A stretch of 32,000 bases of DNA from Rhodoferax lithotrophicus (GCF_019973615.1 NZ_AP024238.1:2717989-2749988), one strand, 5' to 3'; numbered from the stretch's first letter, positions 2,391-13,807 are shown. Made by a program: numbers and translations. Notes: a model not told the origin generated them from the letters alone.

Positions 2391-2655
2391 AATTTCTGAA
2401 CGATTATCGGAGTTGGCCAGATGCCCAATCCCATGTTCTCACGCTGTACCGCGAGTTCCACTGCCACAGAAAACCCATACCCAAGCTGCCAGGATGATCC
2501 GGGATTTTTGTCCGCACTGAGCGACCACGCACCGTTTTGTTGGAAAGGGATGCGACATGCAGGTCATGCAAAGAACCGGTAAAAGAGAGCGATGCGCCCC
2601 ACTGCCCTGCTCCGGTCTTGGTTACCGGCCGTTTGCTACCTGCCTGTTTGTTGAA

Positions 2656-2674
2656 AAGAGCTTGTGCTACAGCC
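2656..2674 (-). repeat. possible internally deleted copy of the intergenic repeat found at 26145 and 30140
   Basis: AAGAGCTT-GT-GCTACAGCC matches both ends of the reverse complement of 26145-26181 (AAGAGCTT...GCTAGAGCC) but lacks the central hairpin. It lies 16 nt downstream of the rpiA stop, in the same orientation relative to that gene. Confidence 0.3.
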
Positions 2675-2689
2675 GTATTGGGTTTCCCC

Positions 2690-3370
2690 TTAAAACGTGA
2701 GTGTTTGGACACCTTGTGCGGTGCCCAATAAGCACACATGTGCTTTCTGAAAGGCAAATACACCGACCGTCACCACGCCAGGCCATTGACTTACCTGGGT
2801 CTCAAACTTCAGCGGATCGGTGATTTGCAGCCCGGTTACATCCACAATATGTTGGCCGTTGTCAGTCACCAGTGGTTGACCGTCACGCAAACGTATTTGA
2901 GCCTCCCCACCCATGGCACGAAACTGCCTGATGATGCGCTGAGCAGCCATCGGTATTACTTCAACAGGTAATGGAAACCGGCCCAAGGTGGTCACCAATT
3001 TCGACTCATCGGCAATACACACAAATTGCTTTGACTGGGATGCAATGATTTTTTCACGTGTCAGCGCAGCTCCACCACCTTTGATCATGAAACCCTGGCG
3101 ATCAATTTCATCCGCGCCGTCAATGTAAACCGCGAGTTCATCCACCTCATTGGAATCAAAGACCGGGATGCCCAAAGCTTTAAGACGTTCGGTACTGGCG
3201 TTTGAACTCGACACCGCGCCCTTGATCTGTTCTTTGATGGTGGCCAACGCGTCGATGAACTTATTTACCGTTGAACCCGTACCCACACCGACAACTTCAC
3301 CCAGTACCACATACTTCAATGCAGCATGCCCAACCAGGGTTTTGAGATCGTCTTGCGAGAGTGTGGACAT
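2690..3370 (-). CDS. rpiA: ribose-5-phosphate isomerase A
   Basis: 226 aa with RpiA motifs [13 protein letters not shown] and [11 protein letters not shown], and full-length resemblance to RpiA. Confidence 0.95.
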
Positions 3371-3434: not shown

Positions 3435-4538
3435 ATGGCTCTTGTTCCTTACGCGTTGACCCGTCCGTTTTTATTTGGCATGGATCCTGAGGCGGCTCAT
3501 GAATTGACTCTGAATACCCTGGCGCGTACCCAGCACTCACTCCTGAATTGGGCTTACCGAGGCAACCGAGTTTGTGACCCCATTGAGTTGGCGGGGCTCA
3601 CGTTTCCAAACCGTGTGGGGTTGGCTGCGGGACTGGATAAAAATGCTCGCTGTATTGACGGCCTGGGGGCGATGGGTTTCGGTTTTGTGGAAGTAGGCAC
3701 GGTGACCCCATTGGCCCAAAGTGGCAACCCAAAACCACGCATGTTTCGCTTGCCAAAAGCCATGGGATTAATCAACCGACTCGGCTTCAACAACGATGGT
3801 CTGGATGCTTTTATTGCTAACGTCCAACAATCTCGCCTTTACCAGCAGCGCAGCACCCACCCGGCTGAACCCGCTATGATGTTGTTAGGGTTGAACATCG
3901 GTAAAAACGCCGCGACACCTATGGAACGTGCCACGGATGATTATTTGATTTGCCTTGACGGTGTTTATCCCTATGCCGATTACGTGACTGTCAACATCTC
4001 CAGTCCCAACACCAAAAATCTGCGCACTCTGCAAAATGATGATGCACTGGATGCCTTGCTGGGAGCCATCTCCAAACGACGTGAAGAGTTGGCCCAAACA
4101 TCTGGCAAGCGCGTTCCCATTTTTCTGAAAATCGCCCCCGATCTGGATGAAACACAAATTGCGGTCATCGCCCAAACACTACAACGTTATGGGAAAGACA
4201 CTCAAGGCAAAGTGAACAATGCTTGGGGAGTGATCGCCACAAACACCACGTTAAGCCGCGATGCCGTTCAAGGCATGGAGCACGCGCAAGAAGCGGGTGG
4301 ACTTTCTGGGGCTCCCGTGTTGACCATGAGCAACCGGGTGATTTCACAATTACGCGCCAGCTTGGGTCAGAATTTTCCAATCATTGGCGTGGGCGGCATC
4401 ATGAGTGCGCAAGATGCCGTGAGCAAAATCCGTGCTGGCGCAGATGTGGTGCAAATTTACAGTGGCTTGATTTATCAAGGCCCAGAACTGGTGTCCGAGA
4501 CTGCATCTCTAATAAAAAAGACCTTCCAGTGCTTATAA
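3435..4538 (+). CDS. pyrD: dihydroorotate dehydrogenase (quinone), class 2
   Basis: 367 aa with motifs [33 protein letters not shown] and GVGGI....A..K..AGA..VQ.YS. The long N-terminal extension is typical of membrane-associated class 2 enzymes. Confidence 0.95.
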
Positions 4539-4561
4539 ATAGTGAATACACTGCTATTGAT

Positions 4562-5662
4562 TTAATTATCAAGTAACTGAATAACGGCTTCTCCAATTGC
4601 CAACGAACTGGTTAAGCCAGGCGATTCAATCCCAAAAAGGTTGACCAAGCCTGGGTGTCCATGAACGTTGGCACCTTGAATGACAAAGTCACTAACAGGC
4701 TCATTCGGGCCACTGATTTTTGGTCGAATACCTGCATATGCTGGCATTAATGCGCCATCCTGCAAACTTGGCCAGTATTTGCGAACTTCAGCATAGAACG
4801 CATCTCCGCGCTCAGCATCAACAACAAGGTCGTCAACAGAGTCAACCCACTGCACATCTGGGCCAAACTTGGCTTGTCCAGCTAAATCAATCGTTAAATG
4901 TACGCCCAAGCCCCCAGCCTCTGGGACTGGGTAAATCAAATGCGTGAACGGCGCTTTACCCGAGAGTGCAAAATAATTGCCTTTGGCATAAAAAGTGGTG
5001 GGAATATGTTCATGGCCTAAGCCTGAAAAATTTCTAGCCAAACTCGATGCCGTTAATCCTGCTGCATTAACCAACACATTACACGCCAGTCGGGTGCCAT
5101 CCTTCATGGTTAATTCAATGACATTGGGTTCAAGTTTGGCTTGCATCAAGGTGCTATGAAGCACCACTGTGCCCCCTGCATTTTCAATATCCGCCTGCAA
5201 TGACAACATCAATGCATGACTGTCCACAATACCCGTGCTGGAAGATAACAAAGCGGCATCACAAACCAATTGGGGTTCTAATTTCAAGGCTGTTTGCCGA
5301 TCAAGCCATACCAAATCTGTAATTCCATTTCGTTTGGCAGCTTCTTCAATGTTCAGAAGCTTGGCCTTCTGATCTGAATCGGTAGCAACGATCATTTTCC
5401 CGCAACGACGATGAGCGATGCCACGGGCTTCACAGTAGGCGTACAGCATCTTGTTACCTAAAACACATAGGTGCGCTTTCAGCGAATCAGGTTTGTAATA
5501 AATTCCGGCATGAATGACTTCGCTGTTTCGTGAACTGGTCGCTGTACCAATTGCACCAGCGGTTTCCAACACCAAAACCTCACGGCCAGCTAACGCCAAG
5601 CTGCGTGCAACAGCCAAACCGACAACACCAGCGCCAACAACTACGCAATCTACTCGATCCAT
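4562..5662 (-). CDS. FAD-dependent oxidoreductase, L-2-hydroxyglutarate oxidase/dehydrogenase-like (COG0579 family)
   Basis: 366 aa. Rossmann motif DCVVVGAGVVGLAVARSLALAGREVLVLE. SSRNSEVIHAGIYYKPDSLKA and GIVDSH resemble LhgO/YgaF-type enzymes. Confidence 0.8.
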   Translation of the reverse strand: MDRVDCVVVGAGVVGLAVARSLALAGREVLVLETAGAIGTATSSRNSEVIHAGIYYKPDSLKAHLCVLGNKMLYAYCEARGIAHRRCGKMIVATDSDQKAKLLNIEEAAKRNGITDLVWLDRQTALKLEPQLVCDAALLSSSTGIVDSHALMLSLQADIENAGGTVVLHSTLMQAKLEPNVIELTMKDGTRLACNVLVNAAGLTASSLARNFSGLGHEHIPTTFYAKGNYFALSGKAPFTHLIYPVPEAGGLGVHLTIDLAGQAKFGPDVQWVDSVDDLVVDAERGDAFYAEVRKYWPSLQDGALMPAYAGIRPKISGPNEPVSDFVIQGANVHGHPGLVNLFGIESPGLTSSLAIGEAVIQLLDN

Positions 5663-6282
5663 GGTTAACCTCCACGAGGGCTAGCAACTTGTTACAGAAA
5701 GAGCACATCCAATCAATCCAAGGTCGAGTTTTTTCCAACAAAACACTACTGGTCAATGCCGTGATCTCTGCATTGCCTTTTAAGATGTGCTGCTTCAAAT
5801 CGTCATTGGATGTAACCCGGATGTGTCGCTGGAATGTACACGCCATCCTAGAAAAGGTGCACTTGATCAAGTTAAGTCATGAACCATGCCTGGATGTATG
5901 AACATACTCGAAACATCCATAACGGGGGCAGGGATAGGTTATGGTCTCTTTGGATATCTAGGACGAGTGGCTATCCAACATTACCTGAATGACAGCACCC
6001 TTGAGGTTAGTACTTGTCGAGTTGCTTGAACAACGCAATAAAACTGATGCTGCAACAGTCGCCCTATCTACACACCGGAGAATCATTGGCAGCCTAAAAC
6101 CAAAACTTTGCTGAGGTTTGGTGATCAAAATGCCATCATCTTGGTACGCATTCACATCTCGTACGTATGCCACCTGCGAAGCTAAAAACTCTGGGGTATG
6201 GCGCGCTGTTATTCTGACAGCGCCAACGAAGGTCGTTCAGATTTTCTTGCCATGATCACTATGCAAATTGAACAAAATTGAC

Positions 6283-6315
6283 AAAAAAAGACCTAGAAAA
6301 TCTAGGTCTTTTTCT
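6283..6315. terminator. bidirectional rho-independent terminator (ends tRNA-Val transcript on the minus strand)
   Basis: AAAAAAAG-AGACCTAGA-AAA-TCTAGGTCT-TTTTCT: a perfect 9-bp stem flanked by an A7 run on one side and a T5 run on the other. It lies 14 nt downstream of the tRNA-Val 3' end. Confidence 0.75.
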
Positions 6316-6322
6316 AAAATCA

Positions 6323-6397
6323 TGGTGGGCGGTGGAGGCTTCGAACCTCCGACCCCAGCAGTGTGAATGCTGTGCTCTACCCCTGAGCTAACCGCCC
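6323..6397 (-). tRNA. tRNA-Val (anticodon CAC), CCA encoded
   Basis: The reverse complement folds as a cloverleaf: GGGCGGT TA GCTC AGGGGTA GAGC A CAGCA TTCACAC TGCTG GGGTC GGAGG TTCGAAG CCTCC ACCGCCC A CCA (75 nt). Confidence 0.95.
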
Positions 6398-6637
6398 CAT
6401 TCCCTTATCGGTAACAGACTGAAATTATGCCATACATTTTTATCTTTTTAAGAAAAAATAACAAATCTTCCAGCCTTGAGAGGACGGGTATTGGCTGCAC
6501 TACAACTCACATACCCTGCGACTCGTCTTCGTTTTACAGTGCCCTCAACTACAGTAGTTTTTCTAACGTCCCACAGAACAGAGATTTAACCCGCTTTGGA
6601 TTTAAAAGAATATTTATGCTTTTTAAAGAACAGTTAC

Positions 6638-6666
6638 TTAAATCAGCAAAAAAACCTGTCTATAAT
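6638..6666 (+). promoter_or_regulatory. putative sigma70 promoter of tRNA-Asn
   Basis: Perfect -10 TATAAT at 6661-6666, 11 nt before the mature tRNA 5' end. Weak -35 TTAAAT at 6638-6643 (17-nt spacer), with an A/T-rich upstream region. Confidence 0.4.
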
Positions 6667-6677
6667 ATAGGACTTGT

Positions 6678-6753
6678 TCCTCGATAGCTCAGTTGGTAGA
6701 GCGCCGGACTGTTAATCCGTAGGTCCCTGGTTCGAGCCCAGGTCGAGGAGCCA
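6678..6753 (+). tRNA. tRNA-Asn (anticodon GTT), CCA encoded
   Basis: TCCTCGA TA GCTC AGTTGGTA GAGC G CCGGA CTGTTAA TCCGT AGGTC CCTGG TTCGAGC CCAGG TCGAGGA G CCA (76 nt). Close to E. coli tRNA-Asn. Confidence 0.97.
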
Positions 6754-6771
6754 AAGATACGCTAGTGAATG

Positions 6772-6805
6772 AAGCCCTTACGAGAAATCGTAGTGGGCTT
6801 TTTTT
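6772..6805 (+). terminator. rho-independent terminator after tRNA-Asn
   Basis: AAGCCCTTACGA-GAAA-TCGTAGTGGGCTT (stem with one bulge, GNRA loop) followed by T7. Confidence 0.75.
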
Positions 6806-6880
6806 ATGTTCGGATTGGACTATTCGGACTTGCTCAGTTCTACTTTGGTTCGGTGGAGTGCCTTTTGAAAGATCATTTGA

Positions 6881-7087
6881 ATGAAACCACTCTTCTCCAA
6901 CATGACACCATCTAATTGGAAAACAACCCTGCGCTTTGTAGCCGGTATCGTGGCGATACTGACGCTAAATGCCTGCGCTGTGGTGGCTGTTGCAGATGCT
7001 GCTGTCACCGTTGTGGCCACCGGGGTTAAGGTCACTGCCAAGGCGGTAGGCGCGGTGGCTGACGCGGTCATTCCCGGTGGCGATTGA
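6881..7087 (+). CDS. small putative lipoprotein, Ala/Val-rich
   Basis: 68 aa. Hydrophobic signal segment ending in the lipobox-like LTLNAC. The mature part is AVVAVADAAVTVVATGVKVTAKAVGAVADAVIPGGD. The stop lies 9 nt before the next ATG. No SD is visible. The mirror ORF 6820..7098(-) is judged an antisense artefact. Confidence 0.5.
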   Translation: MKPLFSNMTPSNWKTTLRFVAGIVAILTLNACAVVAVADAAVTVVATGVKVTAKAVGAVADAVIPGGD

Positions 7088-7096
7088 TTGTGCGGC

Positions 7097-7468
7097 ATGA
7101 ATCTCGCTTTGTTGTTGCGCTCAGCTTCGCCGTTCTGGCGCTGGTCTTTCTGGGGCTTGGTGCTGGTTACGTTGTGGTTATCACTTATTCCGTCTGAACA
7201 GGTGCCCCAAGGCCTTCACTTCTGGGACAAGGCGCAGCATGCAGCAGGCTTTGCTGGACTGGGTTTTCTGGGGCTGATAGCTTACCCGGTTCGTACCGGA
7301 GCAGTTTTACTTAGCCTGGCCTTGTTTGGCATCGGCATTGAGGTCGCACAATGGCTGACGGGTTGGAGGCATGGGGATTTGCAGGACTGGGTGGCAGATT
7401 GCGTCGGAATTGCGATTGGTTACGCGGGGTGGTGGGGGGCAGCCTTAGCGATAAGGATGCGGCGCTAG
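7097..7468 (+). CDS. VanZ-like family membrane protein
   Basis: 123 aa from ATG 7097 (the track ORF starts at TTG 7088). VanZ-type motifs WDKAQHAAGF and GIEVAQWLTGWRHGDLQDWVADCVGIAIG, with 3-4 hydrophobic helices. Confidence 0.75.
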   Translation: MNLALLLRSASPFWRWSFWGLVLVTLWLSLIPSEQVPQGLHFWDKAQHAAGFAGLGFLGLIAYPVRTGAVLLSLALFGIGIEVAQWLTGWRHGDLQDWVADCVGIAIGYAGWWGAALAIRMRR

Positions 7469-7919
7469 CCCAAAAGGTCTTCGGTCAATTCCAATGAAAA
7501 AGGGCAAAGCTCGTAACGAACTCTACCCTTCAGTGTGCTTTCTCAGGTATGGAAAGCGTTATGACGGTAAACCGCCTGTCAAGTGTGTGCGTATGTATGT
7601 TCCATGGTCATCTACGGGGCTCCTTCACCGAGAATAGGGACTCGGTCACGGGGAAATTCTGCGCCTGAATTGTTGAAGAGTCAATTACTTTACTGGAAAC
7701 TGGGCCGTCAGACCCCGCATTTCAGCAGCCGGTGAAGGCAAAACAGCTCTTCGGCGTGCCACCTATGTTGCCCAGCGCACGGACACAGATGCTGCACCTC
7801 TTGATACTGAAACCCGTGATGCACAGCATTTCTGCGCTTGTGCAAAACGTAGTCACCCAGGTCAGCCGTCTGCTGTCTTGGATTTCAAAAGTTTTTGTAT
7901 CCATCAAAGAGGTCGGCGA

Positions 7920-9818
7920 ATGAAAAAAATCGCGGGTAATTCAAAAAGGTTGCCATGCTTCATGGCCATGCTTCTGAGCATCTTGGTCACCGCATGTGGC
8001 GGTGGCGGACAGTCACCCATATTGGGGGCTGGCAGCCTCAGCCCGGTGCCTGTCGTGCCGCTCACGGTCACGGCTGTTTCACCCTTGCCCAATACCTTGG
8101 GTGTGGCGATCAACACCCGAGTCCTGAGCGCTGCATTCAGCCAATCGATGAATCCCGCCACACTCAGCACCACCAGTTTCACCTTGGCTTGCCCGACCAC
8201 CACCCCCATCGCAGGTGCCGCAGTGAGTTATGTCGCCGCCAGCAAAATTGCCACATTGACCTTGCCGGTGGGTACGATGCTCCCTGTAAACACGGTGTGT
8301 ACTACAACGATCACCACCGCAGCCAAAAACAGCACGGGCTTGGCACTGGTCAGCAACTACATCTGGAGTTGGACCACCGCCTTGGCCACCGATACCACCG
8401 CACCCCGGGTCATCAGCACCGTGCACGCCAACAATGCCATCAATGTGCCCGTCAACACCCGCATTGATGCCACCTTCAGCGAAGCCCTCAACCCGCTGAC
8501 CCTGACCAATATCAATTTCTCGATGAAGCAAACCGTAAGCGGTGCGGCCGTTACGGGCACCACCAGTTATTCAGGGGTGGATGCCTTGTTCATCCCGCTG
8601 AATGCGCTGACTCCTGGCACCCAATACACCATGACACTCAAGGGCGGCGCAGGGGGGGTGGAGGATTTGGCAGCCAACCCGATGGCGGTGGACTATGTGT
8701 GGAGTTGGACAACCGTGGCAGCGGATGTCACCGCACCCCTGGTCACCCTGGTCAGCCCGGCCAACCTGGCCACCAATGTGGCCACCAGCACCGCAGTGAA
8801 TGCCACATTCAATGAAGCCATAGACCCCTTGACCATCAGCAATGCCAGCTTCACGCTGGCCGGTGTCACCGGTGTGGCAGGCAGTGTGAGCTTCAATGCA
8901 CTCACCAAGATCGCCACTTTCACGCCCAATGCCGCATTGACGGCAGGCACCATCTACACCGCCACTGTGACCACCGGCGTGACTGATCTGGCTGGCAACA
9001 ACTTGGCACTGAACAAGGTCTGGAGCTTCACCACGGCGGCGATTCCTATCGTGATACCGGTCATTGCCCTCAATACCGCCGCACCGTATGGCACTTTTGG
9101 CGGCACGGCGGGCATGACCAACACCGGCACCCTCACCCAAGTCAACGGTGACATTGGCACGATTGCCACCGGTACCTCCATGGTGACGGGTTTCCACGAC
9201 ACGCTGGGTGACATTTACACCGAAAGCCCGGCCAATATCGGTGCGGTGAACGGCAGGATTTACACCTGCACCAACGCCACCACCGGCCCCAACTCAGCCG
9301 TCTTCAGTGTCCCCAACTGCGCCATTGCCACCCAGGCCCGCCTGGATGCCCAAACCGCCTACCTGGCATTGGTGGCCAAACCGGTGGGTGGCGCAAGTCC
9401 GGCCCCGGGTGCCAACCTGGCTGGCTTGACCCTGTTGCCAGGAACCTATGTAGCCCCTGGCGGCTCGTTCATGATTCAAGGCGGCAACCTGACGCTGGAC
9501 GCGCAAGGTGATGCCAATGCCACCTGGGTGTTCCAGATGGCCACCACCCTCACCGTGGGCGGGCCTGGTGCGGCGTTTCCGCAAAGCATCATCCTGGCTG
9601 GCGGTGCCTTGCCGAAAAACGTGTTCTGGCAAGTGGGCAGCTTTGCCACCATCAACGCCGCCGGTGGCGGCACCATGGTGGGCACGATCATTTCGCAAGC
9701 GGGCACATCATTTTCAACTGCAGGCAACGTCAATATCGTGACACTGGAAGGCCGGGCCCTTTCTCTGGGAGCCTCGGTCACGCTGGTCGACACCGTCATC
9801 AACGTGCCAGCCCCCTAA
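7920..9818 (+). CDS. surface lipoprotein with three Ig-like (Big_5/SbsA-type) repeats and a C-terminal DUF3494 ice-binding-family beta-solenoid domain
   Basis: ATG 7920 lies 8 nt after GAGG. MKKIAGNSKRLPCFMAMLLSILVTAC is a type II signal peptide with lipobox VTAC, followed by a GGGG linker. Three tandem repeats follow. The C-terminal 250 aa carry DUF3494 hallmarks: GDIGT, helix ATQARLDAQTAYLAL, GLTLLPGTYV, LTLDAQGDANATWVFQ, GGALPKNVFWQVGS, GRALSLGASVTLVDTVINVP. Compare the Colwellia/Flavobacterium ice-binding proteins. Confidence 0.85.
   Translation: MKKIAGNSKRLPCFMAMLLSILVTACGGGGQSPILGAGSLSPVPVVPLTVTAVSPLPNTLGVAINTRVLSAAFSQSMNPATLSTTSFTLACPTTTPIAGAAVSYVAASKIATLTLPVGTMLPVNTVCTTTITTAAKNSTGLALVSNYIWSWTTALATDTTAPRVISTVHANNAINVPVNTRIDATFSEALNPLTLTNINFSMKQTVSGAAVTGTTSYSGVDALFIPLNALTPGTQYTMTLKGGAGGVEDLAANPMAVDYVWSWTTVAADVTAPLVTLVSPANLATNVATSTAVNATFNEAIDPLTISNASFTLAGVTGVAGSVSFNALTKIATFTPNAALTAGTIYTATVTTGVTDLAGNNLALNKVWSFTTAAIPIVIPVIALNTAAPYGTFGGTAGMTNTGTLTQVNGDIGTIATGTSMVTGFHDTLGDIYTESPANIGAVNGRIYTCTNATTGPNSAVFSVPNCAIATQARLDAQTAYLALVAKPVGGASPAPGANLAGLTLLPGTYVAPGGSFMIQGGNLTLDAQGDANATWVFQMATTLTVGGPGAAFPQSIILAGGALPKNVFWQVGSFATINAAGGGTMVGTIISQAGTSFSTAGNVNIVTLEGRALSLGASVTLVDTVINVPAP
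8061..9035 (+). repeat. three tandem ~105-codon coding repeats (Ig-like domains) inside the 7920-9818 CDS
   Basis: Units at 8061-8378, 8391-8714 and 8724-9035. Shared protein pattern: D.TAP.V......N....V...T.I.ATFSEA..P.T.......(L/M)...........WSWTT. DNA identity is visible: TGGAGTTGGACCACC at 8364 versus TGGAGTTGGACAACC at 8700, and GATACCACCGCACCCC at 8391 versus GATGTCACCGCACCCC at 8724. Confidence 0.8.
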
Positions 9819-9838
9819 ACCAACACCCGGAGTACGAC

Positions 9839-11017
9839 ATGACACGCACACATTGCAGACTTTTCAGCTTCGCAGGCCGTTTCAGCTTGCTCACACTGGC
9901 ACTCATGGCCAGCCCTTTCGCCATGGCAGACACCCCGTTCTGGTATGGCGGGGCCAATATCGGCCAGTCCCAAGCCACGATTGATGATGCCCGCATCGCC
10001 AGTGGGCTGCTCGCCAATGGTCTCACAGCGGGGCCGATCAACGACATTCACCGTGATCTTGGTTTCAAACTGTATGGAGGCTACCAGTTCAATAAAAACT
10101 TCGCCGTAGAAGGCGGCTACTTTGACCTGGGGCAGTTTGGCTTCAACACCAGCACCATCCCGCTGGGCACCTTAAGCGGCAACATCCGCCTCAAAGGGGT
10201 GAACCTGGACGCGGTGGGCATCCTGCCCATCACCGACAAGTTCTCGGCCTTTGGCCGCCTGGGGGTAACTCACATGCAAACCAATGATACGTTTGTGGGC
10301 ACAGGTGCGGTGAATGTACTCAACCCCAATCCAAGCTCGCGTGACACCAACCTGAAAGTGGGTCTGGGGCTGCAATATGCGCTGGCCCCGGCACTGATGC
10401 TGCGTGGTGAGATCGAGCGCTACCGCATAGATGACGCGGTAGGCAACAAGGGGGATGTGGACTTGGTGTCCGTTGGCTTGGTTTACCGTTTTGGCGCGCC
10501 AACACCCACCCCTGTGACCCGCGCTTACACTGCAGAACCGGTGGTGTTGGCCCAGGCCCCTGCGCCAGCGGTGGCGGTACCAGTTGAGGCCGCCCTGCCA
10601 CCACCTGTACCGCTTCCCCCTCCCATACCCTTGCCTGTCAAAGTCTCTTTTTCTGCGGATTCGCTGTTTGACTTTGACAATGCCGCAGTCAAGCCTGCCG
10701 GTCGTCTGGAGCTGGACAAGCTGGCAACCGATTTGCGTGGCGTGGACTTTGATGTGATCAACGTCACCGGACACACTGACCGCATTGGCTCACATGCCTA
10801 TAACCAAAAGCTTTCGACACGCCGCGCTGAGGCGGTCAACACCTACCTTGTGCAATCTGGCGGCATACCCGCGCACAAGATCAGTGCCAAGGGGGTCAAT
10901 GGCTCAGATCCGGTGACCAAGCCCGGCGACTGCCTGGGCAACAAGGCGACTCCGGCCTTGATTACATGCCTGCAACCTGATCGCCGGGTTGACATTGATG
11001 TATCTGGCAAACTCTAA
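9839..11017 (+). CDS. OmpA-family outer membrane protein (N-terminal beta-barrel, Pro-rich linker, C-terminal peptidoglycan-binding OmpA_C domain)
   Basis: 392 aa. GGAG lies 6 nt before the ATG, which is 20 nt after the upstream stop. Signal peptide ...LALMASPFAMA. Alternating aromatic beta-strands end in VGLVYRF. Linker PTPTPV...PPPVPLPPPIPLP. OmpA_C motif NVTGHTDRIGSHAYNQKLSTRRAEAV. Confidence 0.9.
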   Translation: MTRTHCRLFSFAGRFSLLTLALMASPFAMADTPFWYGGANIGQSQATIDDARIASGLLANGLTAGPINDIHRDLGFKLYGGYQFNKNFAVEGGYFDLGQFGFNTSTIPLGTLSGNIRLKGVNLDAVGILPITDKFSAFGRLGVTHMQTNDTFVGTGAVNVLNPNPSSRDTNLKVGLGLQYALAPALMLRGEIERYRIDDAVGNKGDVDLVSVGLVYRFGAPTPTPVTRAYTAEPVVLAQAPAPAVAVPVEAALPPPVPLPPPIPLPVKVSFSADSLFDFDNAAVKPAGRLELDKLATDLRGVDFDVINVTGHTDRIGSHAYNQKLSTRRAEAVNTYLVQSGGIPAHKISAKGVNGSDPVTKPGDCLGNKATPALITCLQPDRRVDIDVSGKL

Positions 11018-11034
11018 TCAGCATCCATGATCTC

Positions 11035-11060
11035 CTGAACACCATTTCAATGGTGTTCAG
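11035..11060 (+). terminator. strong hairpin after the OmpA-family gene (no U-tract)
   Basis: CTGAACACCAT-TTCA-ATGGTGTTCAG: a perfect 11-bp stem 17 nt after the stop. It is followed by CACAGGGG, so it is not a canonical intrinsic terminator. Confidence 0.4.
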
Positions 11061-11311
11061 CACAGGGGCAATGAGTGTCACCATTCTCGACGCAGAAAAG
11101 CCTATCGCTTTGATGCACCGTTACAAGCCGATGCGTCCCACACAATGGGGTAGATATCGGTTGCCCTGGCAAGAAGCAAAGTTGCTGCATAACGGCAAAC
11201 AGGCAGTCCGCATATTCAAACAAAACACATATCGGCATCGGTTGACAAGTTGGCTTCATCATGGTGCGCAATTTGCTTGCATTGAGTTAACACCCTCAGA
11301 TCAAGACAGAT

Positions 11312-13807
11312 ATGAATACCGCCAAACAAATTGTTGCACCTCGCATGCAAGCATTGCAAAAGTTGGAAAAGTCCCTCAAAAGGCTGGATTTGAGCTGGAA
11401 AGTCATCGAGACCACCGCACGAGTTGTCAGCCCACCGGAATCAGCGGCATTTATCTCAACGCTTGAACACACACGGGCTGCATTTAGCCACTTGGCAGCG
11501 GAAATGGTGGACCAAATTGCACACACTTATTTATCCAACTGCAATCATGATCTAACTTCACGAGCACAAGTGGCCATTGATATCCTGGTTCGTAATCTGT
11601 TTGAGCGGACCGCAGATGTGGGCTTTATTGCAACCGATGGCCCCTTGGTTCAATTTGTCCAGGCTCCAGACGAACAACTACGCACGCAACTGCACGCACG
11701 GTTAACTGAATATCGCAATAAATACACGGTATATGACGACATTTTGGTTCTAAATGCATCAGCACAGTTGTTGTTATCACTCAAACCCAACAACCGACAA
11801 GACATAGTGACACCTGCTTGGTGGTCTGAGGTTCTGTCCAAACAAGGATATGTAGAGTGTTATGGAAGAAGCGGCTTGTTTAACACTGCTGAGAATGTGC
11901 TGATCTATTCACATCGCATCGTGGCCGACGATGGATACCCGTGTGGTGTCGTGATTCTCAAATTTGATTTGCAGTCAGAGCTAATGTCCATTTTCAAGGC
12001 ATTGCAACATGAAAGTAGTGTCATTGCTGTGCTGGACGAACATAGCCGCGTGGTGACCAGCAGTGACACCGATTGCTTTGCTCCTCTTGAGACTGTTCGA
12101 CTGCCAAAGGCCAGACAGCAGTCCATCGCACAGACCATACATCACAAAGGTGTTGACTATCTTTTTTCACACTGTGGCACGCGTAGCTACCAAGGTTATA
12201 GCGGTCCAGGCTGGACAGCACTTGCACTTGTCAGATTGGATGAGGCATTTGAATCATCACGCAATAACACACTATCAACTCAGGGAAAAATACCTGACAC
12301 ATCAATCGAGATTGAGTTGGAACATGCTGAACTTCAACAAATCGTCGCTCGTGCCAGAACCATAGGAAATGATCTCAATCGAGTTATCTGGAACGGTAAG
12401 CTCAATGAGTCAGGTAACGTTCCTGGCTCTGCCCTCAGTCCGGTGTTTTCAGAGATAGGCCGAACCAGCAAGCAAACCATTGCAGCCTTTGATGCCGCTA
12501 TTTTGGAGTTAAAAAGTCTTTTGTTACTTGGAAAGCGCGTCGAATTGACTTCTCATGCCACATTGGCGGTGGATATCATGGATCGTAATCTGTACGAGCG
12601 GGCAAATGACTGCCGGTGGTGGGTGTTATCGGAAGAGTTGACTGATTTGCTCCAAACCCTGCAAGTTTCACCTTCAGACACCACCCTACAGCGGGCGAGT
12701 GAAATATTGGCTCACCTCAACAGCCTGTACACCGTATATCGCCGGGTAGCCTTGTTTGACCGTCAAGGACGCGTTGTGGCTGTCTCCAGAGACGCTCAGA
12801 GCCTTGCCGAGAATACTGAAATTCCTGCGGCCCTCTTGCAACGCACCTTTGCACTAAAGGGAACCCAAGCCTACACCGTTTCCAGCATGGTGCCACATGC
12901 ACTTGCCGATGGTGAAGCTACCTACCTGTACTGCGCCCCCATCCGCAAAATTGGCGAAGATCAACCTCTAGGAGGTGTTGCTCTGGCATTTAATTGCACC
13001 GATGAATTAACTGCCATGCTGAATGATTCGTTGCCTACTGGAGGCACCACGCTTGGGTTCTTTTTAAACCATGATGGTCGGGTACTGGCCAGCACTGATC
13101 TGGATATTGCGGTGGGAGATTGCCCTGACTTCTCCCCTAGCCTGTCGAAAATAGCTGGGGGATATACAGAAAAACCCTGGTGCATATGGAAAGGGAAAAC
13201 CTTTCTGGTGGGTTTCGCAAAGAGCAAAGGATATCGGGAGTTCAAAACCACTGATGGTTATCGGGACGACGTGCAATCGGTGATGCTCACGGCAGTCAAC
13301 CCCAGCCCGGCGTTAGAAGATGGCTTTGTACTGCCCCAACCGCACCTTGGCTTCTCCGAATCAAGTACACGTTACGGGGTTGTTCAATGTGGCTCGCTGT
13401 TGCTTGCTCTGGCAAGTACACATGTGGTTGCAGCGGTATCAGCCAGCAATATGTCCGCGCCTGTCATACAGTCGGATTCAATCGGTATGCTGAAATTTTC
13501 CATAAACGGGCATGTCGACATATTGCCGGTTTACGATACCTGCAAGTTGACAGGACAAGCACCAATTGCCAACCCAGAACAAGCTGTAGCCATAGTCCTG
13601 CGCAACAGAGGCAGGACAGCAGCACTGATCGTAGACCGGCTAATTGATGTGATTGAATGCGCCTCCACAGAGGCCCCACCCGGGGGAACTAACCCAGAGG
13701 CCCCCTGGATAAGCGGATTCATTCACGACAGTCGGCCACACACCGAAGCGGTGTTTGTTATAGACCCCAACAAGTTACCAATATTCCAAAGCGTGCAGAC
13801 ACCATAA
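11312..13807 (+). CDS. soluble multidomain protein: two tandem sensor-like (PAS/Cache-type) modules fused to a C-terminal CheW-like domain
   Basis: 831 aa with no hydrophobic helix or signal peptide. The C-terminal ~140 aa (nt 13367-13786) follow the CheW-domain pattern (RYGVVQCGSLLLAL...IGMLKFSINGHVDILPVYD...AVAIVLRNRGRTAALIVDRLIDVIE...AVFVIDPNKL). There is an internal duplication with the shared motifs AIDILVRNLFERTADVGF / AVDIMDRNLYERANDCRWW and YTVY. Confidence 0.8.
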   Translation: MNTAKQIVAPRMQALQKLEKSLKRLDLSWKVIETTARVVSPPESAAFISTLEHTRAAFSHLAAEMVDQIAHTYLSNCNHDLTSRAQVAIDILVRNLFERTADVGFIATDGPLVQFVQAPDEQLRTQLHARLTEYRNKYTVYDDILVLNASAQLLLSLKPNNRQDIVTPAWWSEVLSKQGYVECYGRSGLFNTAENVLIYSHRIVADDGYPCGVVILKFDLQSELMSIFKALQHESSVIAVLDEHSRVVTSSDTDCFAPLETVRLPKARQQSIAQTIHHKGVDYLFSHCGTRSYQGYSGPGWTALALVRLDEAFESSRNNTLSTQGKIPDTSIEIELEHAELQQIVARARTIGNDLNRVIWNGKLNESGNVPGSALSPVFSEIGRTSKQTIAAFDAAILELKSLLLLGKRVELTSHATLAVDIMDRNLYERANDCRWWVLSEELTDLLQTLQVSPSDTTLQRASEILAHLNSLYTVYRRVALFDRQGRVVAVSRDAQSLAENTEIPAALLQRTFALKGTQAYTVSSMVPHALADGEATYLYCAPIRKIGEDQPLGGVALAFNCTDELTAMLNDSLPTGGTTLGFFLNHDGRVLASTDLDIAVGDCPDFSPSLSKIAGGYTEKPWCIWKGKTFLVGFAKSKGYREFKTTDGYRDDVQSVMLTAVNPSPALEDGFVLPQPHLGFSESSTRYGVVQCGSLLLALASTHVVAAVSASNMSAPVIQSDSIGMLKFSINGHVDILPVYDTCKLTGQAPIANPEQAVAIVLRNRGRTAALIVDRLIDVIECASTEAPPGGTNPEAPWISGFIHDSRPHTEAVFVIDPNKLPIFQSVQTP

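Follow-up and report, generated by a model that had tools for sequence, protein, structure and literature searches.

A DUF3494 lipoprotein gene and an OmpA-family gene form a conserved pair in Rhodoferax lithotrophicus and relatives, and probably encode a surface-displayed binding module

DUF3494 proteins are treated in the literature as secreted or surface proteins. In a 32,000-nucleotide stretch of the Rhodoferax lithotrophicus genome (the window), such a domain forms the end of a predicted lipoprotein whose gene is directly followed by one for an OmpA-family protein. The host, strain MIZ03, has an 18 C temperate wetland as its isolation source (PMC8552755). The locus raises the questions of whether the two proteins work together and what the DUF3494 head would bind. 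The features on which the analysis is based are the following.

7760..7919, + strand: probable promoter and leader, conserved among Rhodoferax-type relatives
7801-7806, + strand: candidate -35 element TTGATA
7920..9818, + strand: lipoprotein gene MIZ03_2675, 632 aa (ORF, Pfam), with signal peptide, tether, three Big_5 domains and DUF3494 head
7920..7997, + strand: type II signal peptide, lipobox L-V-T-A-C with Cys26 at 7995-7997, read from the sequence
7998..8057, + strand: disordered Gly-rich tether, GGGG-Q-S-P-I-L-G-A-G, with QSPILG at 8010-8027
8058..9035, + strand: stalk of three tandem Big_5 (SbsA-type) Ig-like domains (Pfam, AF2)
9072..9815, + strand: DUF3494/Ice_binding head (Pfam, PDB sequence matches, Foldseek)
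9819..9838, + strand: intergenic spacer of 20 nt, GGAG at 9829-9832
9839..11017, + strand: OmpA-family partner gene, 392 aa (ORF, Pfam, NCBIfam, AF2 model); residues 1-30 are the signal peptide
9929-10498, + strand: 8-stranded barrel, residues 31-220 (Pfam, AF2)
9983..10024, + strand: extracellular loop L1, short helix at residues 50-59 (AF2/DSSP), conserved IDDARI
10424..10444, + strand: extracellular loop L4, RIDDAVG (per-residue conservation, 130 partner OmpAs)
10499-10636, + strand: Pro-rich linker between barrel and OmpA_C, residues 221-266
10637-11014, + strand: predicted peptidoglycan-binding OmpA_C domain, residues 267-392 (Pfam)
11035..11060, + strand: hairpin with a perfect 11-bp stem and a 4-nt loop, 17 nt past the OmpA stop codon

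The lipoprotein ORF spans 7878-9818 and yields 632 aa from the ATG at 7920, which is preceded by AGAGG; the product matches P0001 of Rhodoferax lithotrophicus at 100% identity. Its N-terminus shows a basic n-region, a hydrophobic h-region and a lipobox of the form [LVI][ASTVI][GAS]C (MKKIAGNSKRLPCFMAMLLSILVTAC, followed by GGGG), which predicts lipidation. Of 120 homologues, 108 have a lipobox-like motif; the rest are truncated, mis-started or carry a variant outside the search pattern. Behind the tether (pLDDT below 50 for residues 19-44 in the AF2 model), Pfam detected Big_5 in three stretches (E 7.7e-53; approximately residues 47-155, 158-267 and 269-372). This stalk was modelled with a pLDDT of about 90 and matched the BIg domains of LdtMt2 and of the S-layer protein SbsC in Foldseek. 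Its copy number differs between close relatives, and OmpA-linked members have between 0 and about 7 Ig domains. The Acidobacteriota homologues are lipoproteins of about 2000 aa, with some 17 Ig repeats, and exceed the length that a periplasm can hold, which favours a surface location of the family. The layout resembles that of fibrillar adhesins, in which a repeated Ig-like stalk projects a terminal binding domain, but here the stalk is very short (three repeats) and the anchor would consist of N-terminal lipidation and a partner outer-membrane protein. Ice_binding (PF11999) is on the adhesive-domain list of Monzon, Lafita & Bateman 2021 (PMC8286594), and Big_5 is not named in the main text of that paper.

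PF11999, whose cut-off is 28.7 bits, scored the head at 160.3 bits (E 6.7e-47) and aligned positions 3-207 of its 208 to residues 395-627. In the AF2 model a long helix (residues 465-485) flanks a triangular, three-faced beta-solenoid of about 15 short strands, with pLDDT values of 50-80 that fall below 50 for residues 393-464. Foldseek aligned this model with 7BWY, 6EIO, 7EHK, 6BG8 and 9LHR at TM-scores of 0.64-0.80, normalised by target length (0.80 for 7BWY, 0.71 for 6EIO and 0.68 for 6BG8). The best PDB sequence match was 6EIO (E 1e-18, mainly over the C-terminal two-thirds), and 6BG8 was matched by phmmer with an E-value of 5.8e-10. Identities in the Foldseek alignments were 28% to EfcIBP (6EIO) and 20% to 6BG8; judged by these comparisons, the head is a divergent clade. 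In an alignment of 45 sequences Cys450 and Cys467 are conserved, and conserved T/S/N residues (T543/T545, T577/N579, S599 and S619/T621) would lie on a single solenoid face, as assigned from the DSSP strand order in the AF2 model. EfcIBP, FfIBP, LeIBP, TisAFP, ColAFP and AnpIBP share the Pfam family and the helix-plus-triangular-solenoid fold with this head. However, such canonical DUF3494 proteins are single- or double-domain and without a stalk in the solved structures, as indicated by chain lengths. They are soluble and secreted, and we know of none with a lipid anchor or an OmpA partner.

A precedent for the combination of tandem Ig-like stalk and DUF3494 head is SfIBP_1 of Shewanella frigidimarina (6BG8), a proposed ice adhesin whose anchor is presumably a lipoprotein signal. 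This precedent, named in the original prediction, is real: PMC9957290 describes SfIBP_1 as a proposed cell-tethered protein with such a stalk and head (Vance, Graham & Davies 2018). The R. lithotrophicus protein has the same order of N-terminal lipoprotein signal, tandem Ig stalk and C-terminal head. It differs in having a stalk of Big_5 domains (the 6BG8 molecule carries the name 'Ig domain protein, group 2'), in that its head belongs to a distant clade and in that its host, from an 18 C wetland, is neither a psychrophile nor ice-associated. For SfIBP_1, no OmpA partner or tether motif is reported in the open-access papers searched.

The second gene encodes an 8-stranded barrel, a Pro-rich hinge, OmpA_C and a Cys pair near the C-terminus, as in the OmpA/OprF family; we take the Cys pair to be the counterpart of the E. 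coli OmpA disulfide. The barrel was identified by PF01389 (OmpA_membrane, E 4.7e-21) and PF13505 (OMP_b-brl, E 1.3e-19) and was modelled as eight strands over residues 34-218 (pLDDT 80-90). OmpA_C was identified by PF00691 (residues 276-362, E 1.3e-17); peptidoglycan binding is putative, and the stretch GHTDRIG...YNQKLSTRRA is near-invariant in the partner clade. The NCBIfam porin OmpA equivalog model NF008071 gave a full-length match of 184.4 bits, below its cut-off of 277, and by profile comparison the protein is an OmpA-family member but not an E. coli OmpA equivalog. It also departs from OmpA/OprF proteins in its loops. The extracellular loops of OmpA are normally the variable part, whereas in 130 partner OmpAs (38-82% identical overall) L1 and L4 are conserved and no indels were found in any of the four loops. 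No element of the partner is better conserved than L4, which has an identity of 0.87 to the window sequence and an entropy of 0.58 bits; the periplasmic turn T3 has an identity of 0.15. As far as alignments can tell, this unusual conservation of L1 and L4 is a new feature. The Geobacterales partners carry a Big_5 or TSP_3 domain within the periplasmic linker, and the linker Big_5 shares 57% identity with one of the stalk repeats in the neighbouring lipoprotein, which hints that Ig domains of this system are able to work in the periplasm.

The lipoprotein stop codon (9816-9818) and the OmpA ATG (9839) are separated by the 20-nt spacer, in which a terminator scan found none; the short gap and the ribosome-binding site suggest that the genes are co-transcribed. 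Across loci, a scripted tblastn survey gave a median gap of about 28 nt to the start of the OmpA match. An alignment of five upstream regions confined the conserved blocks to the last ~160 nt before the lipoprotein ATG, a region in which Rfam gave no match and a sigma-70 consensus scan of the + strand made no call. The hairpin is the only one of its kind in the window and was produced by none of 100 shuffles; with its flanks it has a folding energy of -22.8 kcal/mol (z -3.0). It is not followed by a T-run and was not called by the terminator scan; it is thus not a canonical intrinsic terminator and leaves the operon end undefined, but is possibly a transcript-end or stabilising structure. The gene structure proposed originally was borne out in each of these respects: the signal peptide with VTAC and then GGGG, three Ig repeats and a DUF3494 head in a Pfam scan, an OmpA gene 20 nt downstream behind GGAG, the barrel/Pro-linker/OmpA_C layout, the perfect 11-bp hairpin and a beta-solenoid like those of solved ice-binding proteins.

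With more than 4000 homologues, the stalk-plus-head architecture is widespread, and it has already been listed, as 'tethering', in Arctic metagenomes. Unlike the architecture, the pairing with OmpA appears undescribed, in line with the original statement that no such operon was known: no paper connecting DUF3494 with OmpA was found among open-access papers, nor did the literature search find an experiment on any member of the MIZ03_2675 subfamily. Conservation of the OmpA neighbour had been set beforehand as a test of the idea, and the linkage held in both directions. Among genome loci with a lipoprotein relative and at least 1300 nt downstream (n=73), 62 have an OmpA-type (barrel plus OmpA_C) gene directly downstream on the same strand. 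The 11 loci without it comprise all surveyed Acidobacteriota (four) and Planctomycetota (two), Riflebacteria, UBP9 and three proteobacterial loci. Conversely, one to three DUF3494 lipoprotein genes lie directly upstream at all 57 informative loci of the OmpA clade (at least 900 nt upstream; tblastn found 53, and four were resolved by scanning the ORFs of L103, L158 and the related L125 with Pfam). Shared phylogeny makes the loci non-independent, and MAGs are the source of many of them. The pair spans Beta- and Gammaproteobacteria to Geobacterales with varying flanking genes. On the Caballeronia megaplasmid pSBC2-3 it is flanked by IS630 and IS5 elements and annotated 'ice-binding family protein' and 'OmpA family protein', and one Agitococcus MAG carries two pairs (L047 and L050) with a separate OmpA each. 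These observations suggest that the pair moves as a unit. Since the operons L158 and L166 contain Ig-less DUF3494 lipoproteins and keep the same OmpA, the partner tracks the head and not the stalk. BON/OsmY-like genes follow the OmpA gene at about 23 loci.

The tether provides a further link. A motif Cys-Gly(n)-[QRK]-x-P-I-L-G was found only in lipoproteins adjoining a window-type OmpA gene, in 101 of those directly upstream of it. Eight apparent misses beside this OmpA type seem to stem from lipoboxes called on ORFs cut at the 5' end or on an upstream read-through, and the true N-terminus at L082 carries RDPILG. The motif is absent in eight lipoproteins without an OmpA gene, in seven upstream of another DUF3494 gene (the first genes of tandem sets) and in three paired with a different OmpA type. 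The contrast also holds within lineages (L164 versus L165; L017/L019; genes 1 and 2 versus gene 3 in L158 and L166). The distance from the Cys to the motif varies from 2 to 9 residues, which counts against a fixed threading geometry. Within the sequences compared, the co-occurrence of tether motif and OmpA partner is a new feature, and together with the duplicated and plasmid-borne pairs it strengthens the earlier claim of a dedicated partner.

We consider it probable that the two proteins form one functional module, in which a binder with stalk and head on the cell surface docks on a dedicated OmpA that is itself tethered to the cell wall. Gene 1 would encode an outer-membrane lipoprotein anchored by its lipid-modified Cys and composed of Gly-rich tether, three-Ig stalk and solenoid head with a flat Thr/Ser/Asn-rich face; gene 2 would encode the OmpA-family protein, whose barrel would lie in the outer membrane and whose C-terminal domain would bind peptidoglycan. 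We infer that the lipoprotein sits on the outside of the cell, where it would act as a short binder resembling a fibrillar adhesin, and that G(n)-[QRK]-x-P-I-L-G docks on the partner, most likely near L1 and L4. Such docking would link the head mechanically, across the outer membrane, with the cell wall, instead of leaving it to three acyl chains alone, and the head may bind an ordered, repetitive surface. In RcsF-OmpA/OmpC/OmpF, Neisseria Slam and the Bacteroidetes export signal, a post-Cys element and/or a partner barrel sets the destination of a lipoprotein, and neisserial surface lipoproteins also have Gly-rich tethers after the Cys. These systems are analogies only, without a sequence relationship to the pair, whose barrel is of the small 8-stranded OmpA type; no Slam/TamA-like gene was found in the neighbourhoods of the pair.

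The adjacency could instead be inherited synteny next to a housekeeping OmpA, as the standard architecture, the E. coli-like disulfide motif and the sub-threshold porin OmpA match (184 versus 277 bits) might suggest. We regard this as highly improbable, because the pair is kept from Beta-/Gammaproteobacteria to Geobacterales despite differing flanks, with a DUF3494 gene upstream at every informative locus, because it occurs twice in one MAG and on a plasmid between IS elements, and because the tether motif co-varies with partner presence. A coupled pair might also face the periplasm, the lipoprotein organising or stabilising the outer membrane-peptidoglycan space with OmpA_C (and BON proteins) while its solenoid contacts the cell wall or the periplasmic part of the partner. 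Default Lol sorting places a +2-Gly lipoprotein in the inner leaflet, and we know of no general route for its surface display in Proteobacteria. The resemblance of the stalk to that of the membrane-anchored periplasmic enzyme LdtMt2, the Big_5 or TSP_3 linkers of Geobacterales and the role of OmpA_C and BON as periplasmic envelope-integrity domains agree with this location. A stalk of 0 to about 7 Ig domains, and about 17 in Acidobacteriota, is however unfit for a compartment of fixed width, other reported DUF3494 architectures bear secretion or surface signals (autotransporter beta-domain, PEP-CTERM), and conservation of the partner barrel peaks in an extracellular loop and not in the periplasmic turns. 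We therefore judge a periplasmic role unlikely.

For the docked surface binder, ice is our first-choice ligand, for protection against freeze-thaw or for attachment where water or soil freezes seasonally, although this choice is tentative and held at somewhat less than an even chance. Ice is only one candidate because the isolation source of the host is an 18 C wetland and because groundwater and soil also harbour relatives, whose habitats are mixed and include glacier-fed sites and others that never freeze. A serious alternative is that the same module is a general particle adhesin, the head binding a mineral or particle surface (e.g. Fe oxyhydroxides), exopolymer or another cell. Bacteria that cycle iron or live in sediment or groundwater are enriched among hosts and relatives (Rhodoferax lithotrophicus, R. 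ferrireducens, Geobacterales, Gallionella, Sideroxyarcus, Sulfuricellaceae), although this may mirror the sampling of freshwater and soil metagenomes. According to the literature PF11999 is an abundant Pfam across all soils and is present in caves, groundwater and hot springs, and binding to mineral substrates has been proposed by Raymond. The conservation of the head within the subfamily, loops included, is very strong and exceeds the need of a generic flat ice-binding face. On the other hand, operons of the same type hold heads close to ice-binding proteins: an SfIBP_1-like protein is the first gene of the OmpA-terminated operons L158 and L166 (match to 6BG8 with E 4.6e-77, 263 bits over 246 residues), and a head in operons of this type is 55% identical to chain 4NU3, deposited as 'ice-binding protein'. 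The BON/OsmY-type neighbours suit osmotic or freezing stress better than adhesion. Moreover, to our knowledge ice binding is the sole activity demonstrated for the DUF3494 fold, and a non-ice ligand has never been shown for any such domain. On balance we hold particle adhesion to be possible but doubtful.

Many bacteria of soil and fresh water have kept the lipoprotein/OmpA pair, which thus offers a new handle on the role of DUF3494 proteins outside icy habitats.

The pair of genes, the junction between them and the hairpin behind them occupy the following window positions:

7878-9818, + strand: lipoprotein ORF, start ATG at 7920, AGAGG before the ATG
7995-7997, + strand: Cys26 of a type II signal peptide with lipobox (MKKIAGNSKRLPCFMAMLLSILVTAC, then GGGG), read from the sequence
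8010-8027, + strand: QSPILG of the tether motif CGGGGQSPILGAG, a short stretch after the lipid Cys
9816-9839, + strand: intergenic junction, read from the sequence (stop 9816-9818, GGAG 9829-9832, next ATG at 9839)
9839-11017, + strand: partner OmpA ORF (392 aa), with an OmpA-type barrel and OmpA_C by Pfam and a Pro-rich linker between them
11035-11060, + strand: perfect 11-bp hairpin, folding at -22.8 kcal/mol with flanks

The 632-aa product of the first gene is 100% identical to MIZ03_2675, a 'hypothetical protein' of Rhodoferax lithotrophicus MIZ03. The original prediction of a VTAC lipobox followed by GGGG, three tandem Ig repeats and a C-terminal DUF3494 region was confirmed, as the lipid Cys was placed at residue 26 and Pfam matched three Big_5 domains (E 7.7e-53) and Ice_binding/DUF3494 at residues 395-627 (E 6.7e-47). 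More than 4000 database proteins match the lipoprotein at E <1e-10. The best 120 of these all contain Big_5 and Ice_binding and range from 553 to ~1100 aa, which indicates a variable copy number of the stalk domains. As a rule, homologues have a lipobox followed by Gly-rich residues. A stalk-plus-head lipoprotein is of a kind already known, because the architecture pfam13205_pfam13205_pfam11999 has been tabulated as 'tethering' in Arctic Ocean metagenomes (PMC9957290) and Ice_binding is listed among the adhesive domains of fibrillar adhesins (PMC8286594). Within its large family the protein is unremarkable. Several long reading frames (150-208 aa) run across its gene at 7955-9802, both in other frames and on the complementary strand; a GC-rich gene of biased composition commonly gives rise to them, and nothing supports them as genes.

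The barrel/Pro-linker/OmpA_C protein predicted to start 20 nt further on, behind GGAG, was found exactly there. The NCBIfam model 'porin OmpA' matches it over its full length with 184 bits, the equivalog cut-off being 277. The predicted hairpin was also recovered; it is unique within the window and 0/100 shuffles produced one. Since it lacks a U-tract it is no textbook terminator, and a terminator scan did not call it. A sigma-70 promoter scan gave no + strand site upstream of the lipoprotein gene, and a permissive Rfam search of 6000-12000 returned only two tRNAs and chance matches, with nothing in the 450 nt upstream of this gene. The sequence TTGTATCCATCAA at ~7896-7908 was considered as an FNR box and rejected because of its wrong spacing and the nearby start codon.

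To survey the neighbourhoods of DUF3494 homologues, as the original prediction had proposed, we scanned from both sides of the pair, using the best 80 loci per scan and mechanically called ORFs; many loci are MAG contigs. From the lipoprotein side, with one genome per species and 515 relatives, the best 80 of the 515 loci came from Beta- and Gammaproteobacteria, Geobacterales, Acidobacteriota, Planctomycetota and Riflebacteria. Seventy-three loci extended 1300 nt or more beyond the lipoprotein gene, and 62 of them had a barrel plus OmpA_C gene directly downstream on the same strand; the scripted tblastn survey put the median distance to where the OmpA match begins at ~28 nt. The 11 loci without it comprise all four Acidobacteriota, both Planctomycetota, Riflebacteria, UBP9, a short contig from Gallionella and, from a single MAG, two loci that are almost identical. 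In the opposite direction, the best 80 metagenome loci showed 50-82% identity to the partner OmpA, and one or more DUF3494 lipoprotein genes lay directly upstream in 57/57 loci with at least 900 nt of upstream sequence; 53 of these were detected by tblastn, and the other four (L103, L133, L148 and L158) were settled from ORFs together with Pfam scans of L103, L158 and the related L125.

The two genes travel together: those flanking them vary from locus to locus, a plasmid copy is flanked by IS elements and one Agitococcus MAG contains two pairs (L047 and L050). The plasmid copy is that of Caballeronia sp. SBC2, where the pair, annotated as 'ice-binding family protein' and 'OmpA family protein', lies between IS630 and IS5 elements on a 795-kb plasmid. 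A Caballeronia paralogue of the lipoprotein on another replicon has no OmpA gene. At L164 (plasmid pSBC2-3, 488994-501012) an Xre/RES toxin-antitoxin pair adjoins the lipoprotein/OmpA pair, and the RefSeq annotation 'ice-binding family protein' is limited to the final 230 aa of the lipoprotein, although tblastn matches 99% of the 632-aa query. In L165 (Caballeronia sp. SBC1 pSBC1_2) the OmpA-less paralogue is preceded by a 452-aa ORF (L165:3107-4465) that, judged by eye, looks like an ECF-type sigma factor. The OmpA clade was also found behind other DUF3494 subfamilies, whose heads are only 33-36% identical, and behind Ig-less lipoproteins, so it is the DUF3494 head or the tether, rather than the stalk, that the partner goes with. 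When neighbouring ORFs were clustered all against all, no third universal gene emerged, only accessory ones: BON (OsmY-like) genes after the OmpA gene in ~23 loci, a Crp/Fnr regulator nearby in 14, and generic signalling proteins. Neither a BON gene nor a Crp/Fnr regulator is present in the window, where the pair is surrounded by:

6323-6397, - strand: tRNA-Val(CAC), in a stretch of 44-49% GC
6678-6753, + strand: tRNA-Asn(GTT), in a stretch of 44-49% GC
6881-7468: 68-aa ORF with signal peptide, lipobox (LTLNAC) and Ala/Val-rich mature part, then a VanZ-like protein
11312-13807, + strand: 831-aa protein with two dCache_1 stretches and a C-terminal CheW-like domain, directly downstream of the pair

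The VanZ-like 126-aa membrane protein (7088-7468; Pfam VanZ, E 4e-9) starts where the 68-aa ORF ends. Pfam gave no match for the latter; together they resemble a pair of small lipoprotein and VanZ protein, situated shortly before the module. In the 831-aa protein, which by its predicted domains is an unusual sensor-CheW fusion, Pfam matched neither an MCP signalling domain nor HAMP; its gene is not conserved beside the pair in the other loci examined. Over 4001-12000 the GC content is 59-61% across the lipoprotein/OmpA pair and 47% beyond 11000, a rise that may reflect Ala/Gly/Thr/Pro-rich proteins or an acquired segment.

Lipoproteins encoded directly upstream of an OmpA gene of the window type share a pattern after the lipid Cys, Gly(2-9)-[QRK]-[ADSE]-P-I-L-G-x-G. 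Across all loci, 101 such lipoproteins carry this tether motif. Eight others seem to lack it, which looks like the result of placing the lipobox on a 5'-cut ORF or an upstream read-through; one of them, L082, has RDPILG at its true N-terminus. The motif is absent from eight lipoproteins without a downstream OmpA gene (among them L017/L019 from Betaproteobacteria and L165, the Caballeronia paralogue; L164, the OmpA-linked sister of L165, has RDGILG), from seven DUF3494 lipoproteins whose next gene encodes a further DUF3494 lipoprotein, and from three Geobacterales-type lipoproteins whose partner OmpA is of another type. Only L005 breaks the pattern, having the motif beside a frameshifted OmpA gene. 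In tandem operons only the last lipoprotein bears the tether motif, and in the Gallionella operon L166 the sequence CGGNDPILG occurs only in the third, OmpA-adjacent lipoprotein. These contrasts within a lineage and within an operon appear telling, although the motif counts are phylogenetically non-independent.

The loops of OmpA are ordinarily its variable part. In an alignment of 130 partner OmpAs (38-82% identity to the window protein), all four extracellular loops were free of indels, IDDARI was conserved in L1, and L4 (RIDDAVG, residues 196-202) was the most conserved stretch of the whole protein (identity 0.87, entropy 0.58 bits); conservation in the periplasmic turn T3 was low (identity 0.15). 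Together, the tether motif and the conserved loops suggest that the lipoprotein touches its own OmpA directly, and the conservation of L1 and L4 points to the outer membrane face as the side of contact. Threading of the Gly tether through the eight-stranded barrel, as proposed for RcsF, was given low weight, since the spacer between Cys and motif varies from 2 to 9 residues.

We consider it quite likely that the lipoprotein is displayed on the surface, the alternative being that it stays in the periplasm. Default Lol sorting would place such a lipoprotein in the inner leaflet, and by Foldseek its stalk resembles the BIg domains of LdtMt2, which is periplasmic. The Geobacterales partner OmpAs also favour a periplasmic location, as they have a Big_5 domain or TSP_3 repeats in the periplasmic linker; their lipoproteins (L012, L010 and L022) are without the P-I-L-G tether motif:

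L012:8144-9517 and L010:~2440-3111: Big_5 between barrel and OmpA_C, 57% identical to a stalk repeat of the neighbouring lipoprotein and 85% conserved between two MAGs
L022:4076-5431: thrombospondin type-3 repeats between barrel and OmpA_C

For surface exposure speak the conserved extracellular loops of the partner OmpA, the stalk length, which varies freely between close relatives, and the secretion or surface signals of other DUF3494 architectures in the literature. In addition, Acidobacteriota MAG homologues (L058, L079 and L083) are lipoproteins of ~2060-2130 aa in which ~17 Big_5 repeats precede a DUF3494 head at the C-terminus. Their ORFs end near 7704-7761 with no OmpA gene downstream, and they are putatively long fibrillar-adhesin versions of the family; ~17 Ig repeats would outreach the width of any periplasm. 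Type II secretion genes adjoin DUF3494 lipoprotein genes in two unrelated contexts, L101:68-2247 (GspE/F-like, by inspection alone) and L167/L168:9605-13935 (GspD/E/F plus an SLT transglycosylase); by analogy with the lipoprotein pullulanase, they could provide a route to the cell surface.

In an AF2 model of the lipoprotein, built on a 45-sequence alignment, all three Ig domains are predicted with confidence (pLDDT ~90) and the tether (residues 19-44) is disordered. The head consists of a long helix (465-485) and then ~15 short strands, at moderate confidence (50-80) that is poor over residues 393-464. In Foldseek, target-normalised TM-scores of the head were 0.80 for 7BWY, 0.71 for both 6EIO and the FfIBP mutant 7EHK, and 0.68 for SfIBP_1 (6BG8); the stalk aligned with the S-layer protein SbsC as well as with LdtMt2. 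A PDB sequence search gave EfcIBP 6EIO (E 1e-18), AnpIBP, Cryosericum IBP and SfIBP_1 (E 6e-10) as top matches. S. frigidimarina, the source of SfIBP_1, was not named among the top 120 hits of a protein search. Taking every third strand of the modelled head as one face, we found a face with the invariant or nearly invariant residues T543/T545, T577/N579, S599 and S619/T621, which looks like the ice-binding b-face, as judged from strand order, not coordinates. In the partner OmpA model, eight long strands (34-218) with a short helix (50-59) in L1 are followed by a disordered Pro linker (222-266) and an OmpA_C fold.

Links to ice-binding proteins are provided by two six-gene operons whose OmpA is 52% identical to that of the window:

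L158:231-6025 (metagenome) and L166:7001-13304 (Gallionella MAG): three DUF3494 lipoproteins, OmpA, two BON-domain proteins

The first lipoprotein has a head that matches the SfIBP_1 ice-binding domain (E 4.6e-77, 263 bits, 246 residues). The second, shown for L158, shares 55% identity with 4NU3, a PDB entry named 'ice-binding protein' and presumably an FfIBP/LeIBP-type chimera, and also strongly matches LeIBP, TisAFP, ColAFP and Cryosericum IBPs. The third bears the tether motif, and in L166 a LapA_dom protein then follows. With relatives of validated IBPs and BON genes alongside, ice or freezing/osmotic stress may be the physiological context. The source of MIZ03 was an iron-rich wetland at 18 C in Tsukuba (PMC8552755), and its relatives come from icy places such as glacier-fed streams and Greenland ice as well as from groundwater, bogs and Danish soils. 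The function of DUF3494 proteins from non-freezing habitats has been stated as unknown, and they may bind minerals (PMC11645318, PMC7783341, PMC12337378). We tentatively rank ice first as the ligand of the head; a mineral or other surface, a somewhat more doubtful candidate, comes a close second.

The cautious interpretation of the original prediction, a putative ice or particle adhesion lipoprotein with an OmpA anchor, largely stands, and we classify the lipoprotein by its predicted domains as ice-adhesin-like or fibrillar-adhesin-like with a putative dedicated OmpA anchor. None of the open-access papers searched joined DUF3494 with OmpA or ice binding with an OmpA operon, and the original prediction likewise knew of no such operon. 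The DUF3494-lipoprotein/OmpA module appears to be undescribed, and so do the tether motif linked to the partner and the conservation of the OmpA loops. A bolder reading, which we regard as rather unlikely, is that the tether motif and the OmpA barrel with L1 (IDDARI) and L4 (RIDDAVG) would form an undescribed proteobacterial mode of lipoprotein surface display or retention coupled to the wall, which could be the physiological context of DUF3494 in soil and freshwater bacteria.

DUF3494 is the commonest microbial ice-binding fold and an abundant Pfam domain in the world's soils, also where freezing never occurs. With a partner gene that is strictly conserved, a short motif of docking type and conservation in two extracellular loops, its role in such places becomes experimentally tractable. 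The pairing also offers an annotation rule for this OmpA clade and for proteins named 'Ig-like domain-containing' or 'hypothetical'. If the lipoprotein is surface-exposed through the pairing, this would bear on outer-membrane biology, as the routes of lipoprotein display in proteobacteria are few.
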